Virus record (IMG/VR): IMGVR_UViG_3300038492_000162
Coordinates: 1 to 25,297 of that record
Reading direction: 5' to 3' (one strand)
Origin: a virus
Taxonomy: Duplodnaviria; Caudoviricetes
DNA: 25,297 bases
This document shows, piece after piece, positions 1,098-14,211 of the stretch (position 1 is its first letter; each line of letters begins with the position of its first letter). The notes beneath the pieces are model-generated. The model ran no database searches. It saw only the letters and a list, made by a program, of their open reading frames with translations, and had not been told where the DNA came from. Both the position numbers and the translations under genes were made by a program.

Positions 1098-1318
1098 CTG
1101 AGCAAAACCTAAAGCAAGAGATCCACGCCAAGCTATCAGCAAGTGACGCGATCGACTCGAAAAGCGCCCTGAGCTCAAATCAGATCAGCGCTCTTATTTT
1201 TGGTTCCGATTGGCTGAAAGTCAAAGTTGCCTGTTATGATCTTGCGAAAAATAATGTGGTTGTGGTGACGGAAGATCAGAAGTTTTATCTTAATGTGAAA
1301 AGCAAGGTGGAGGTTTGA
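1094..1318 (+). CDS. Small winged-helix-like DNA-binding protein
   Basis: Pattern LSSNQISALI...VKVACYDLAKNNVVVVTEDQKFYL (helix-turn-helix plus beta wing). Confidence 0.55.
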   Translation: MTEQNLKQEIHAKLSASDAIDSKSALSSNQISALIFGSDWLKVKVACYDLAKNNVVVVTEDQKFYLNVKSKVEV

Positions 1319-2610
1319 ATGTGGCTGTATATACCGCAATCTCGGTCTGCTCTGGAATCGGTGGACTTGACCACGGAATTGACCGAGCAATCGGCGGAGC
1401 GCTTCGCAACGTCCTTATGGTGGAAGGGGAAGCGTTTAGCGCAAGCAACCTGGCGGCGCAAATGGAAAGCAACTTCATGGCTCAAACGCCTATCTGGGCT
1501 GACCTTAGAACCATTACAGGCCCAGAATGCAACGCTTACGTTCGCCGATCGCTTTGCGGAAGAAGTCTCGACATCTTCTTTGGCGGAATCCCCTGCCAAC
1601 CCTGGTCCGTCGCTGGCAAGCAGGCTGGAGCAGACGATGAACGCGACTTATGGCCGGCAAGTCTTGAAGCAATTAGCCATTACAAACCGGGGCTTGTTCT
1701 TATCGAGAATGTTTCGGGGTTCGCAGGCGAGCCTCTTGGGCTCCGACGAGTCGCCGCAGATCTTGCCGGAATGGGTTACTCAGTTGCAAGCGGTATCTTT
1801 ACGTCGTCAGAAGTCGGCGGAAGCCATCAGCGCAAACGGTGCTTTGTTATGGGCTATAGCGAGAGCCACGGACACAAACAATCCAGGAGAACATGGGCAA
1901 GGGGGGCAGGATCTTCGAACGCAAGTCGAAAATTGGATGACGCCAAGAGCAATGGACGGGCAAGGGTCAACGTGGATGTCAGGGCCGAAGGGTATACAAG
2001 TGCCAACTCACTCAGGGCAGGCGCAAATGTGGACGACAGTAACGGCGAGCGAGGCAGGGGGGACATTCGAAAGCCGAAAGAAAGCGAAGCAAAAAACGGG
2101 GCGCGAGCAAGTAACAATTCTGAATGTAGTGGCAGCGGACGGATGGCCAACGCCAACGGCAAGGGATTGCAAGGGGGGAGTAACGGACGAGGCGCTGATA
2201 CGGGCGGATGGCAAAAGCCGAATGGATGCGCTACCCCAGATGGTCGAGCGCTTCCCATTTGCCCGGGGCGAAGCGACTACAGGTCTTGGGCAGCTATTGC
2301 GCGAAATAATCCCGATTTACTGCCCGCACTATCACCTTTCGCAATGGAGCAAATCGCTGGAAGAAATGTCAGAATCCGAATTACAGGAAGTGTGGGAGAG
2401 TCGCCCGAAGAACGACAGATACAGGATGAGATTGAATTGGAAATTCAGCGCATGGCTGATGAATATTCCGATCGAACACATTGCTTGCGGGCTATCGGAA
2501 ACGCCGTCGATCAGCAAGTCGCAGAGTACGCATTCGTAACGCTTTTCTCAGTGATAATGGAGAATATGGCCCGCTTGTCTATCAATGCTGAACAGATGGC
2601 AAGACCCTAG
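1315..2610 (+). CDS. C5-cytosine DNA methyltransferase, alpha (catalytic) polypeptide
   Basis: Motif I SVCSGIGG, motif IV GGIPCQPWS, motif VI IENV, motif VIII HQRKRCF, motif X LRAIGNAV. Start is TTG 1315 or in-frame GTG 1321. Confidence 0.93.
   Translation: MNVAVYTAISVCSGIGGLDHGIDRAIGGALRNVLMVEGEAFSASNLAAQMESNFMAQTPIWADLRTITGPECNAYVRRSLCGRSLDIFFGGIPCQPWSVAGKQAGADDERDLWPASLEAISHYKPGLVLIENVSGFAGEPLGLRRVAADLAGMGYSVASGIFTSSEVGGSHQRKRCFVMGYSESHGHKQSRRTWARGAGSSNASRKLDDAKSNGRARVNVDVRAEGYTSANSLRAGANVDDSNGERGRGDIRKPKESEAKNGARASNNSECSGSGRMANANGKGLQGGSNGRGADTGGWQKPNGCATPDGRALPICPGRSDYRSWAAIARNNPDLLPALSPFAMEQIAGRNVRIRITGSVGESPEERQIQDEIELEIQRMADEYSDRTHCLRAIGNAVDQQVAEYAFVTLFSVIMENMARLSINAEQMARP
1319..2539 (+). 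CDS. Overprinted +1-frame protein, probable methyltransferase beta subunit (WxTP repeats plus motif IX-like segment)
   Basis: 406 stop-free codons nested in the MTase gene. ATG lies 5 nt after GGAGG. Four W-x-T/I-x-x-A-x-D/E repeats and RLNWKFSAWLMNIP. Confidence 0.8.
   Translation: MWLYIPQSRSALESVDLTTELTEQSAERFATSLWWKGKRLAQATWRRKWKATSWLKRLSGLTLEPLQAQNATLTFADRFAEEVSTSSLAESPANPGPSLASRLEQTMNATYGRQVLKQLAITNRGLFLSRMFRGSQASLLGSDESPQILPEWVTQLQAVSLRRQKSAEAISANGALLWAIARATDTNNPGEHGQGGQDLRTQVENWMTPRAMDGQGSTWMSGPKGIQVPTHSGQAQMWTTVTASEAGGTFESRKKAKQKTGREQVTILNVVAADGWPTPTARDCKGGVTDEALIRADGKSRMDALPQMVERFPFARGEATTGLGQLLREIIPIYCPHYHLSQWSKSLEEMSESELQEVWESRPKNDRYRMRLNWKFSAWLMNIPIEHIACGLSETPSISKSQSTHS
1850..2176 (+). 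repeat. Four degenerate dual-frame coding repeats
   Basis: +1 frame: WAIARATD (1850), WMTPRAMD (1934), WTTVTASE (2030), WPTPTARD (2144). The same DNA in frame 0 reads MGYSESHG, LDDAKSNG, VDDSNGER, MANANGKG. Confidence 0.75.
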
Positions 2611-3241: not shown

Positions 3242-3429
3242 TCAGCGTAGGAGATCGGGTGCAATTCAGGAATAGACCGGGTGTCGTCACCCATATCTTC
3301 GACCACCCCAGGTTTACGCCAGTGGTCAGGGTGGCTTACGACAAGCCATACGTGGATCCTGTTCAGGGCTTGATAAAGCACGTTGTTTGCATGGTTACCC
3401 TTGTAGAAAAAATGGAGACCGGGACATGA
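3238..3429 (+). CDS. Small SH3/KOW-like hypothetical protein
   Basis: ATGA overlap; MISVGDRVQF...GVVTHI pattern. Confidence 0.65.
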   Translation: MISVGDRVQFRNRPGVVTHIFDHPRFTPVVRVAYDKPYVDPVQGLIKHVVCMVTLVEKMETGT

Positions 3430-4130
3430 GAAATAATCTAACGACATTTACTTTTTGGGCCTTCTCAGCGCTTGTGCTGACTGCCTATGCGGTTGACACG
3501 TTCGGGCAAGACTCAACTCTTGTGACCGTCTCATGGAGCGCAAACACAGAGCCCGACATAGATCACTACGAGCTCTACGCGGGCAAAATGTCCCGCTCGT
3601 ACGAACTCGCCGGTGTGACGCATCAGACGCAGCTTGAGATTGCCGTCTCGGGAACGACTTATTTTGCTGTCGGCGCCGTGGATGCTGCAGGCAATGTCTC
3701 GGCGCCAAGTGAAGAAGTCAGATGGCCCGCGTTCGAGCCTGTTATTGCCGGGATCGACACGGTAGAAGAGGGCCAGTGGATTTATTACGAAATCGGCAAT
3801 CTCGGCACGGACACGCAGGGAATGGCTTACGAATCTGACTCAATCGCCGTTAAGTGGCTAACCGACCAGTGGCACTTTCTCAACCCCGATAATGGCGACT
3901 ACTACATCAGAAGCGACACGCTTGCAATCAACCTGCCGCTGATCACGCGGTTTATTTGGGATCAAGACGACTTCCAGTACAACTACAAGCCGCGTTTCAG
4001 GCTGGACGTGTATCACGATGGGCATGAAGTGCTTGGCTTGGAGTCGCCGCAGGTCTACATTAAGCCACCGGAAACGGGTATCCCTGCGCCGGTGGAGTTG
4101 CGGAGAATTTTTGTAGGTGGAGAGAAATGA
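3426..4130 (+). CDS. Secreted fibronectin type III domain protein
   Basis: Hydrophobic N-terminus ending ...DTFG-Q, then the FN3 signature VTVSWSANTEPDIDHYELY...TYFAVGAVDAAGNVSAPSEEV. Confidence 0.8.
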   Translation: MRNNLTTFTFWAFSALVLTAYAVDTFGQDSTLVTVSWSANTEPDIDHYELYAGKMSRSYELAGVTHQTQLEIAVSGTTYFAVGAVDAAGNVSAPSEEVRWPAFEPVIAGIDTVEEGQWIYYEIGNLGTDTQGMAYESDSIAVKWLTDQWHFLNPDNGDYYIRSDTLAINLPLITRFIWDQDDFQYNYKPRFRLDVYHDGHEVLGLESPQVYIKPPETGIPAPVELRRIFVGGEK

Positions 4131-11578: not shown

Positions 11579-12778
11579 ATGCCAGACCTGCAAATTATCG
11601 ACGAAATAGGCTACCAAACAGGCACCGTTAAATCGGTGAGTGATTTTCTTAAGAATCACAAAGCGCAAAAGGTAGTCGTTCAGATCAACTCCCCCGGCGG
11701 CGACGTCTTTGAAGGCATCGCCATTTACAACCTTCTCAAATCTTCCCCCAAAACAATTCACGTTGAAATCCTTGGCCTTGCTGCATCGGCGGCTAGTCTT
11801 ATTTCTATGGCTGGCGACACGGTGTCTATGGCGAAATCTGCTCTTTTCATGATTCACAACCCGTGGACCTTCGCGGGCGGCGATGAAAACGACCTGCAAA
11901 AGACTGCGGACAGGCTCAAGAAAATCAAGACACAGATGCTTGGCATCTATACGGGCAAGACTGGCTTGAGCGAAGATGAAATTGAGTCGATGCTTGACGA
12001 CGAAACCTGGATGTCGTCCGAAGAAGCCAAGGCAAAAGGCTTCATTGACAAAGAAATGAACTCAGCAGGGAGTGTTATTTACAACTCTGCTGGTTTAGAT
12101 AAATTCAAATACAAAAAAGTGCCTGAGACAATCACAGGAAACAACGCAATGAACGAAAAAATTAAAGCGCTGTTGGGCGTACAAGACGACGAACAGGTTG
12201 TCCAGGCGCTTCAAGCGAAACTTGACGAGCTGAAGACGGCAAACTCGACCATCTCCACCCTCGAAGATAAGGTTGAAGCGCTTGAGAATGCCGATGACGA
12301 TTCGGGCAAGCTCAAGGCGATGCTGGCCGAGCGGGACAAAAAGATTGCCACGCTCAACAAAGCTCATGAAGGAACGCAAAGGCAGCTCAAGGCATTCGCC
12401 GAAGAGCGCGCGAAAGAAGCAAAATCTAAGGTTGAAGCCAAGATCGAAGATCTGAAAAAACGCGGCTACATCAACGCGGCTATGGGCGAGAGCCTTTTAG
12501 CCATGTATGACGGCCACGGACAGGAAGCTTTTGATCTCCAGGTTGAAACCATTGAAGCTGGCGAGCCAGTAAAGGCGTATTTGACCGACCCGCAGGGCAC
12601 AGACGGGGACGCTCCCGCTCTGAATAGCGATCCTGTAAAGGCGTTCGATGATGCCGTACAAGCCGCCATGAAAGAAGACGATAGCCTGGATTATGAAGCT
12701 GCATCCGATCACGTTACAGCTAAGAATCCTGGCTTGTGGGAGAAGTATAACGCAGCCGTGACCAGTCAGCCGCAGTAG
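11579..12778 (+). CDS. ClpP-family (S14) prohead protease with C-terminal scaffolding domain
   Basis: INSPGGDVFEG, GLAASAAS, MIHNPW, DETWMSSEEAKAKGFID, followed by a coiled coil. Confidence 0.95.
   Translation: MPDLQIIDEIGYQTGTVKSVSDFLKNHKAQKVVVQINSPGGDVFEGIAIYNLLKSSPKTIHVEILGLAASAASLISMAGDTVSMAKSALFMIHNPWTFAGGDENDLQKTADRLKKIKTQMLGIYTGKTGLSEDEIESMLDDETWMSSEEAKAKGFIDKEMNSAGSVIYNSAGLDKFKYKKVPETITGNNAMNEKIKALLGVQDDEQVVQALQAKLDELKTANSTISTLEDKVEALENADDDSGKLKAMLAERDKKIATLNKAHEGTQRQLKAFAEERAKEAKSKVEAKIEDLKKRGYINAAMGESLLAMYDGHGQEAFDLQVETIEAGEPVKAYLTDPQGTDGDAPALNSDPVKAFDDAVQAAMKEDDSLDYEAASDHVTAKNPGLWEKYNAAVTSQPQ
12149..12778 (+). CDS. Nested in-frame scaffolding protein (putative internal start)
   Basis: AGGA (12136-12139) precedes ATG 12149 (MNEKIKALLG) at the protease/coiled-coil boundary. 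Confidence 0.55.
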   Translation: MNEKIKALLGVQDDEQVVQALQAKLDELKTANSTISTLEDKVEALENADDDSGKLKAMLAERDKKIATLNKAHEGTQRQLKAFAEERAKEAKSKVEAKIEDLKKRGYINAAMGESLLAMYDGHGQEAFDLQVETIEAGEPVKAYLTDPQGTDGDAPALNSDPVKAFDDAVQAAMKEDDSLDYEAASDHVTAKNPGLWEKYNAAVTSQPQ

Positions 12779-12836
12779 CTCCCGCACAAGGTTCTTGTCG
12801 AGAAATAAATCTTAACCCGTAACCGGAGTTTAAAAT

Positions 12837-13226
12837 ATGGCTTCCGGCGCATCCGCTGGCGTGGGCTTCGATCACAGTTACGAAGTGACCGAAAACCTGA
12901 CCAGCAACCAATATTACGTCATGAAGCGCGGTGCGAATGACGGCCAAGCTCTCCTGGCTGACACGGCCGGTGGTGTTGTCTTGGGTGTCCTGCAGGACAG
13001 CGGCCTTGACGGGTCTTCGAATGCAGAGCATGCCGCAATTCGAAATGCAGGCGAAAGCCTGTGCAAGATCGGCGGCACCGTATCTGCTGGCGATCCATTG
13101 CAAGCCGACACTGACGGAATGGCTATTGTTGCCGCGTCTGGCGATTATGTCTTTGCTCGCGCAGAGCAAGACGGCGTTGACGGCGACGTTATCCGTGTAA
13201 CTCTGACAATGGAAGGCACCTTCTAA
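12837..13226 (+). CDS. Capsid cement/decoration protein (DUF2190-like)
   Basis: GGTVSAGDPLQADTDGMA...AEQDGVDGDVIRV; GGAG SD; lies between scaffold and capsid genes. Confidence 0.8.
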   Translation: MASGASAGVGFDHSYEVTENLTSNQYYVMKRGANDGQALLADTAGGVVLGVLQDSGLDGSSNAEHAAIRNAGESLCKIGGTVSAGDPLQADTDGMAIVAASGDYVFARAEQDGVDGDVIRVTLTMEGTF

Positions 13227-13266
13227 GGGGCTGGATCTAAGGACCAATAAAAAGGGATAGCTCCCA

Positions 13267-14211
13267 ATGGCTAACAAAACAGCAAGGGCCAACCCTCTCC
13301 TTACGAGCCTTTCGTTGAAGCGGAGAACACAGGCCAAAGACTATGTCGCCAACTTCCTTGCCCCTGTCATTATGACGGGAAAGCAAAGCTTTGGTGAATA
13401 TTACGAATTTGACGACGGGGCATTCGCAAAGAACCCCGACAACCGAAAGGCAGCAGATGTGCCGAGTCGCACGATCGACATTGGCGCCAGCTTGCAGCCT
13501 TTCAAGTGCGTTGAGTATGGTTCGCGTGCTGGCTACACAAAGCGAGAGCTGGACGACTTCGGCGGTCCCGAGAACGCTTTGCAGAAAGCCAAGATGCAAG
13601 CCGTAACCGACGCTGATATGCTTGCTCATGAAGTGCGCGTTGCAACGCAGTTTACGACTTCAGGCAACTTTGCCAGTGGTCACAGTGAAACGCTCGCGGG
13701 TAGCGATATTTGGGACAACGCAAGCTCAGACCCATTTGAGCAGATCATTACTGCCAAGCAAAAAATCAAATTGGCGACAGGCTATGAGCCTAACCGTATG
13801 GTCGTTTCTTACGACGGCTTCTGGGGTGCTCTCGCCAACCACGCAGATATCAAGTCTCGCGTCCAGGCACAGCAAAAGGACACTGGCTTTCGCGCCATTA
13901 CGCCTCAGCTGGTCGGATCGCTGTTCGATGTGGATCTGCGGGTTGCTGGCGCTGTTTACAATTCAGCAAACGAAGGCCAAACGGTATCTCGTTCCTTCTG
14001 TTGGGGTGATCACGCCCTGGTCTTCTACGCTGAAGAGTCTCCAGCGAAAGATTCCTACAGCCTGGCTTACACGTTCACTTACGAAGACTTCGTGATGCGA
14101 ACGTATTTCGAAAACAGCACAAAGAAAACATGGGTGGACAACAGTCACGACGTAGATGTAAAAATCTGCGGGAATGCTGCTGGCTATCTCATTTCAAACC
14201 TTCTCACGTAG
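13267..14211 (+). CDS. Major capsid protein
   Basis: 314 aa. NPLLTSLS...YVANFLAPV...WDNASSDP...TGYEPNRMVV...ALANHADIK...AGYLISN pattern, plus position. Confidence 0.88.
   Translation: MANKTARANPLLTSLSLKRRTQAKDYVANFLAPVIMTGKQSFGEYYEFDDGAFAKNPDNRKAADVPSRTIDIGASLQPFKCVEYGSRAGYTKRELDDFGGPENALQKAKMQAVTDADMLAHEVRVATQFTTSGNFASGHSETLAGSDIWDNASSDPFEQIITAKQKIKLATGYEPNRMVVSYDGFWGALANHADIKSRVQAQQKDTGFRAITPQLVGSLFDVDLRVAGAVYNSANEGQTVSRSFCWGDHALVFYAEESPAKDSYSLAYTFTYEDFVMRTYFENSTKKTWVDNSHDVDVKICGNAAGYLISNLLT

Follow-up and report, generated by a model that had tools for sequence, protein, structure and literature searches.

A widespread phage C5-methyltransferase gene with two overlapping open frames, predicted to encode two chains of one enzyme

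Can one stretch of phage DNA encode, in two overlapping frames of the same strand, both chains of a single DNA methyltransferase? The locus that raises this question lies in the window, i.e., the whole stretch of DNA analysed here (25,297 nucleotides), which is an entire 25.3-kb virus record with a completeness of about 30%. The window is that of a tailed phage, with terminase, Mu-type portal, Clp protease, capsid, and tail genes downstream of the methylase, and the methylase gene is found among small ORFs, directly 5' of a Holliday-junction-resolvase-like gene. In this report, we call the two frames alpha and beta, and we consider it probable that together they form one C5-methyltransferase. 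In the mechanism that we predict, both frames would likely be translated from one common ribosome-binding site into two chains, which would assemble into one orphan DNA cytosine-C5 methyltransferase protecting phage DNA from host restriction; beta would supply the small DNA-reading domain, made of four exchangeable cassettes and motif IX, and the DNA-recognition region is likely in beta as well, in the form of a cassette array. This reading draws on two ORFs with complementary motifs, a switch of selection from alpha to beta, and the gain and loss of whole cassettes.

The surroundings of the gene are those of an ordinary phage. No restriction endonuclease was recognised in the annotation of the neighbouring genes, and the methylase is therefore likely an orphan. 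The sequencing runs containing window DNA carry the label aquatic metagenome, and no RNA runs containing it are listed. Promoter and terminator scans gave nothing specific. At 11579-14211, genes for Clp-protease-type head maturation, scaffolding, and a capsid-E-type major head protein follow 3' of the Mu-type portal as an ordinary phage head module. One of the small early genes, a 247-aa ORF at 3387-4130, appears to begin like a signal peptide and weakly matches tail fibre J (E 0.001). The window as a whole is poor in GGCC, CTAG, CGCG, and CCGG and has no CCGCGG, CACGTG, CCATGG, CTCGAG, or AACGTT, which suggests restriction pressure; this avoidance was set aside as evidence for the methylase because it cannot be tied to this enzyme.

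The start region and the two ORFs are arranged as follows.

1094-1318: upstream 74-aa ORF, whose TGA stop abuts the beta ATG
1309-1313, + strand: Shine-Dalgarno-like GGAGG, judged from sequence to be likely common to both starts, which lie in ATGTG (ATG 1319 for beta, GTG 1321 for alpha), a string frequent in relatives
1321-2610 (or from 1315), + strand: alpha ORF, putative catalytic chain, with motifs I-VIII, a linker, and motif X
1319-2539, + strand, +1 frame: beta ORF, 406 aa, with an MWLYIP start, a weakly constrained N-terminal part, four cassettes, and a motif-IX-like segment

An initial annotation of this DNA had proposed two proteins of more than 400 aa overprinted on 1.2 kb, and its coordinates and lengths hold: alpha (1315-2610, 431 aa) and beta are both open on the same strand, offset by +1, with a 1.2-kb overlap. 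The placement of the alpha start at 1315 does not. The spacing from GGAGG is 1 nt for TTG 1315, 5 nt for ATG 1319, and 7 nt for GTG 1321, and many relatives begin with an identical ATGTG, some with an alpha-frame stop just 5' of the start. Since the spacing is unsuited to TTG 1315 and ATGTG is common to relatives, alpha probably starts at GTG 1321 (429 aa). Chance falls far short of explaining the double open frame. In 16 other genes of the same phage, the +1 frame has 210 stops in 5600 codons and its longest open stretch is 162 codons, and upon synonymous recoding of alpha the +1 frame stays open in 1 of 5000 trials, while recoding of beta leaves alpha open in 0 of 5000. An assembly artefact was ruled out, as overlapping contig pieces of two runs cover the gene with no differences (none spans it whole) and unrelated records repeat the layout.

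The alpha chain has the landmarks of the C5 family, in which motif I binds SAM. The motif numbers used for alpha and beta segments are labels that we presume to apply.

1342-1365, + strand: motif I variant SVCSGIGG
1582-1599, + strand: motif IV GGIPCQ with the catalytic cysteine; P and C are invariant in 137 aligned relatives
1702-1713, + strand: motif VI IENV
1825-1845, + strand: motif VIII HQRKRCF
1906-2226, + strand: linker (residues 196-302), predicted disordered (pLDDT <50, no secondary structure), overlying the beta cassettes and unconstrained in relatives
2482-2508, + strand: motif X CLRAIGNAV, followed by a C-terminal helix

Catalytic PCQ, ENV, and RxR are thus accompanied by SAM-binding motif I and a Rossmann-type domain, as expected for PF00145, and the Pfam match is limited to residues 7-193. 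The predicted structure has a catalytic domain, modelled with confidence, that matches M.HaeIII (181 columns, E 1.5e-12), and then a C-terminal helix that is likewise confident, with no folded small domain. By motifs and modelled fold, alpha is a putative DNA cytosine-C5 methyltransferase. It has motifs I, IV, VI, VIII, and X and lacks motif IX, as originally claimed, and motif X is likewise present and motif IX absent in 118 of the 120 alpha homologues listed.

The missing motif appears to be found in beta, whose internal features are these.

1850-1933, + strand: cassette 1, of GEHGQGGQDLRT type, with a degenerate WAIA head; score match in five other betas, and the same core seen by eye in P0003 and P0004
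1934-2029, + strand: cassette 2, WMTP head; no close match among 421 units
2030-2143, + strand: cassette 3, WTTV head; no close match
2144-2248, + strand: cassette 4, of WPTPTARD...RADGKSRMDAL type (WPTP head); largest cluster, with 53 units
2328-2423, + strand: lineage-variable insert 5' of motif IX, open in both frames; a same-sample relative skips it (the letters between the two sides are not known)
2423-2470, + strand: motif-IX-like segment RMRLNWKFSAWLMNIP; family pattern LNPxWVEWLMGxP

Beta matches phrog_1008, "DNA methyltransferase," in PHROGs (E 2.4e-16), with no match in Pfam or NCBIfam. Among 5719 candidates there are 27 beta relatives besides the window's own, and 25 aligned betas have in common that they begin with MW, contain W-x-T-P repeats, and carry LNPxFVEWLMGWP C-terminally. 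Position and pattern bear out the motif-IX-like segment just 5' of alpha motif X, and the label rests on these two because no match emerged when the beta family was compared by profile with one ordinary C5 enzyme. The WxTP-type repeats described by the initial annotation are four in number, and just two of them read WxTP, the others being WAIA and WTTV.

Are both frames maintained, and where? From 594 confirmed viral loci, the best 80 by alpha alignment alone were taken; 77 of these were scorable, with 73 distinct loci among them. Over 80 codons from motif IV, which makes 5840 codons for the 73 distinct loci together, there is 1 stop in the +1 frame versus 312 in the +2 frame, bearing out the absence of stops in homologues on which the dual-coding claim depends. 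A frame switch is seen in the 19 scorable of 21 chosen close pairs, which partly share loci and are not independent. In the catalytic motifs, residue change is 8% in alpha versus 19% in beta and differences favour alpha third positions (0.165 vs 0.084 and 0.042); in the gene middle, the residue change is 28% in alpha versus 10% in beta, and differences favour beta third positions (0.247 vs 0.068 and 0.067). The alpha middle changes at the same rate as the unused third frame (29%). Same-sample relatives, for which the best-supported differences were considered (40 of 54 in one table, from one study, one run of which is perhaps the source of the window DNA), present the same picture. In cassettes and motif IX, 21 of the 32 changes listed fall on beta third positions (p 1.9e-4), and in the cassettes, among the differences listed, beta codons have 17 silent and 10 changed, versus 6 silent and 19 changed for alpha. 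Selection therefore passes along the gene from alpha, in the catalytic motifs, to beta, in the middle and motif IX. The expectation of constraint in both frames is thus upheld insofar as the +1 frame is under purifying selection, but constraint alternates and neither protein is constrained throughout. Since it alternates, the gene amounts to two partly passive chains, in which the beta front would be largely a spacer from the common start and the alpha middle a tether delivering motif X. This view is supported by three relatives (L064, L067, and L086) whose motif X sits in a third ORF.

These data also bear on whether the window copy might be decaying or inactive, with the family otherwise as described. 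Its motif IX has four substitutions (P to W, V to S, E to A, and G to N) at sites that 94-99% of 103 relatives conserve, cassettes 1 and 3 have degenerate heads, and the window forms a long branch with P0029 on the core tree, all of which might be expected of a failing gene. However, the catalytic PCQ, ENV, and RxR are intact, no listed variant in same-sample relatives creates a stop, and 3/3 of the motif IX changes listed there are silent in beta while altering alpha. P0029 is compatible with the window beta at 30/31 motif IX positions in a permissive test, with 26/32 alpha residues kept. Given the beta-silent changes in close relatives and the matching P0029 stretch, the sequence suggests that the diverged motif IX is a maintained variant, and we regard decay as quite unlikely. 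Closer relatives were sought with P0029 in metagenomes, yielding none, and with a 20-base pattern, yielding 0 viral matches and 8 chance metagenome matches. A tblastn of beta versus cultured phages gave nothing, a search that is insensitive because the cultured Synechococcus phage Yong-M2-251 has such a frame.

The two-frame layout is that of a large phage family, not a one-off. Pattern scans give estimates of ~7,100 viral stretches for alpha patterns and ~9,300 for the beta pattern, although just 48 of 600 beta-pattern matches passed tblastn versus the diverged window query. By pattern, the best 80 loci comprise 64 with the window layout, 3 with motifs IX and X in beta, 1 with motif IX in alpha, 7 with no motif IX (4 of them cut by contig ends), and 5 unclassified, which on inspection proved to be two with a variant motif X and three of a three-ORF form. 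In the 64 loci with the window layout, beta opens at least 53 codons 5' of motif IV in 43 and 14-21 codons 5' in 20, and is broken in one; the first ~70 beta codons are therefore optional in the family. In the three-ORF relatives, alpha is interrupted 3' of motif VIII by 8 (L064), 19 (L067), and 13 (L086) stops, with beta intact and motif X in third ORFs of 87, 132, and 86 aa (L064:3288-3551, L067:3060-3458, and L086:2898-3158), preceded by a Shine-Dalgarno and ATG in L067 and L086. These apparent three-chain methylases, as judged from their ORFs, nest among two-chain forms in a quick tree. Motifs IX and X are both in beta in L045, L046, L097, L106, L117, and phage Hoot (L131:1489-2488), and such forms are dispersed over the core tree, with 6 changes of which at least 4 are forced. 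Layouts thus appear to interconvert repeatedly, and some forms may be sequencing frameshifts.

This variety helps weigh a reading by recoding, in which ribosomes would translate alpha as far as motif VIII, slip into beta for cassettes and motif IX, and then return to alpha for motif X, making one chain. Constraint does alternate between frames in precisely that order, motif IX is within the alpha chain in 1/80 loci (L124) and 1/120 proteins (P0059), and the excerpted source on the overlapped methylase genes of Cluster O mycobacteriophages leaves a frameshift open (PMC4351075). Nevertheless, two shifts would be needed, and recoding leaves unexplained the stop-free unused halves, the conserved MW start of beta behind a ribosome-binding site, and the Shine-Dalgarno and ATG 5' of the motif X piece in two of the three three-ORF relatives. 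Moreover, according to an excerpted source, M.EcoHK31I works from separate genes and needs both chains (PMC2836561). Recoding into one chain is in our view very unlikely, and we retain two chains.

That genes of this kind are annotated in one frame only, as the initial annotation anticipated, is borne out by three examples. In Yong-M2-251 (L141:1162-2301), which has the same full-length layout, alpha alone is annotated and a 371-aa MWLYVP ORF at 1169-2284 is not. For the Roseicitreum plasmid pRA03 (L143:1090-2362), the annotation gives only the 3' part of beta and misses a 418-codon alpha frame. The third is the M.EcoHK31I-like gene discussed below (L132), where RefSeq annotates alpha only.

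What, then, fills the middle of beta? The W-x-T/I repeats are discrete cassettes, gained and lost whole. Their median spacing is 38 residues, and with each unit motifs VIII and X of alpha lie 31 residues further apart (rho 0.72, n 94). When 421 units from 129 betas were clustered, 210 fell into 21 clusters of four or more, one of which is a pre-array linker and not a cassette. Cassette types recur in different genes at differing array positions, and 0 of 642 within-gene unit pairs reach the same-type score. Among pairs with cores at least 90% identical, the unit count is the same in 7/18, and L078 and L095, with cores 100% identical, have 4 and 2 cassettes, none common to both. The type of window cassette 4 is found in 11 genes with cores 33-45% identical to the window's. 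In a same-sample relative, 252 bases are replaced by 138 across cassettes 2-4, leaving the gene 38 codons shorter (net) with both frames kept. Several non-identical exchangeable units therefore fill the beta variable region. By analogy with known multispecific enzymes, each cassette may read its own target sequence, a proposal to which we give slightly less than an even chance, since the published TL-motif consensus is found in 0/136 betas in its strict form (8/136 in a relaxed form) and no structure supports it. Beta alone was modelled poorly (pTM 0.31). No informative match came from comparison with the HhaI/HaeIII recognition loops, from Foldseek or VIA-align, from searching the sequences of solved structures, or from Atlas, a result that says nothing on the fold.

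The closest parallel to this design is M.EcoHK31I from E. coli, reportedly described by Lee, Kam and Shaw in 1995 as an alpha/beta C5-methyltransferase acting on YGGCCR. An M.EcoHK31I-like gene was found by a published primer in 73/5426 E. coli genomes, its identity being taken from primer matches. In one such copy (L132), a 309-aa alpha and a 176-aa beta, the latter in +1, adjoin a NotI-family endonuclease. In both systems, beta is nested in the +1 frame, with alpha carrying motifs I-VIII as well as X and beta carrying motif IX, which supports the M.EcoHK31I-type reading initially proposed: alpha lacks motif IX, and the +1 frame, under purifying selection, supplies it. The proposal that beta is here much longer and covers nearly all of alpha also stands (406 vs 176 aa, 1319-2539), as it starts at the start of alpha. 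Other differences are that the L132 beta has no WxTP units, whereas here there is a cassette array; that no endonuclease was recognised near the window gene; that the cores are distant on the tree; and that the L132 beta weakly matches TIGR00675, unlike the window beta. M.EcoHK31I's target recognition domain (TRD) is placed in alpha by excerpted sources (PMC2836561, PMC3404938), whereas here the alpha middle is predicted disordered and evolves like a non-coding frame, with stops there in three relatives. Because the layout agrees but the TRD-in-alpha feature fails, we file the window gene as a variant of the M.EcoHK31I type.

A weak likeness of the window beta to the L132 beta is confined to the stretch under alpha motifs VI-VIII, and we set it aside as a shadow of the common alpha frame. 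It could also fit a scenario in which alpha is a self-sufficient methylase of relaxed specificity and beta, though real, is a protein apart from it, for instance a regulator, as could the absence of Pfam, NCBIfam, and TL-consensus matches for beta. Against this, alpha is modelled with no folded small domain, PHROGs files the beta family as DNA methyltransferase, and five relatives and Hoot run motif IX straight into motif X as one beta chain, which makes beta part of the methylase polypeptide there. A separate beta is thus most unlikely, and one enzyme of two chains remains our preferred reading.

Two further groups of enzymes invite comparison. In excerpted sources, the multispecific C5-methyltransferases of Bacillus phages (e.g., M.SPRI and M.H2I) are single chains with tandem TRDs of TL-motif type, whose specificities were mapped by swaps (PMC8936443, PMC2413257). 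As far as those excerpts go, the window gene resembles them in being an orphan phage enzyme whose units between motifs VIII and IX are in tandem, differ from one another, and can be exchanged, and differs in that its units are in a second frame and have a WxTP head, with target specificity that we infer. M.AquI and the mycobacteriophage pairs, e.g., Corndog genes 6/7, are similar in being split after motif VIII, but in the excerpted account (PMC4351075) the overlap is partial and motif X is in the second gene, whereas here both frames are open over 1.2 kb and motif X is in alpha. In phage Hoot, gene 84 overlaps gene 83 in +1, with LPTP units before motifs IX-X. Partial methylase overlaps are thus already in print. 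Our literature search found no description of the full-length two-frame family or its cassettes, although subscription papers or REBASE may have one; the excerpted texts of PMC11855218, PMC4472890, PMC3711429, PMC5944983, and PMC10333322 have nothing on it.

These results suggest that a layout proven for one E. coli enzyme is a common phage design, and that 1.2 kb of same-strand dual coding is recorded by annotation in one frame only. With selection handed between frames, the gene is a natural model for constraint sharing by overlapping genes. A fuller reading joins several of these points: a widespread family with its cassette array in the overprinted chain, in which the WxTP cassette is a non-TL module shuffled between distant phages with both frames open, and a gene that can split into core, cassette chain, and motif X peptide. 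We hold this joint reading tentatively, as falling just short of probable. If the cassettes do set specificity, one gene would yield a set of protected sites that is programmable, and through dual coding recognition would be free to evolve while the catalytic protein stays untouched. It would then be possible to assign target sequences to cassette types in many phages, phage escape from restriction would be explained in part, and a naturally split, modular methylase would be available for engineering. A direct test is at hand, since Yong-M2-251, which has the same layout, is cultured on a laboratory cyanobacterium (PCC 7002).

Two additional forms were noted. Two dual-frame units are apparently in tandem in L043:133-1952, the second having no motif IV. 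In Rhodobacter phage RcMrWorf (L142:967-2244), a divergent methylase (SPPCQ, EQV) likewise has its +1 frame open for 394 codons, and this frame contains repeats as well as an LNPEHSRWLMGYP segment.
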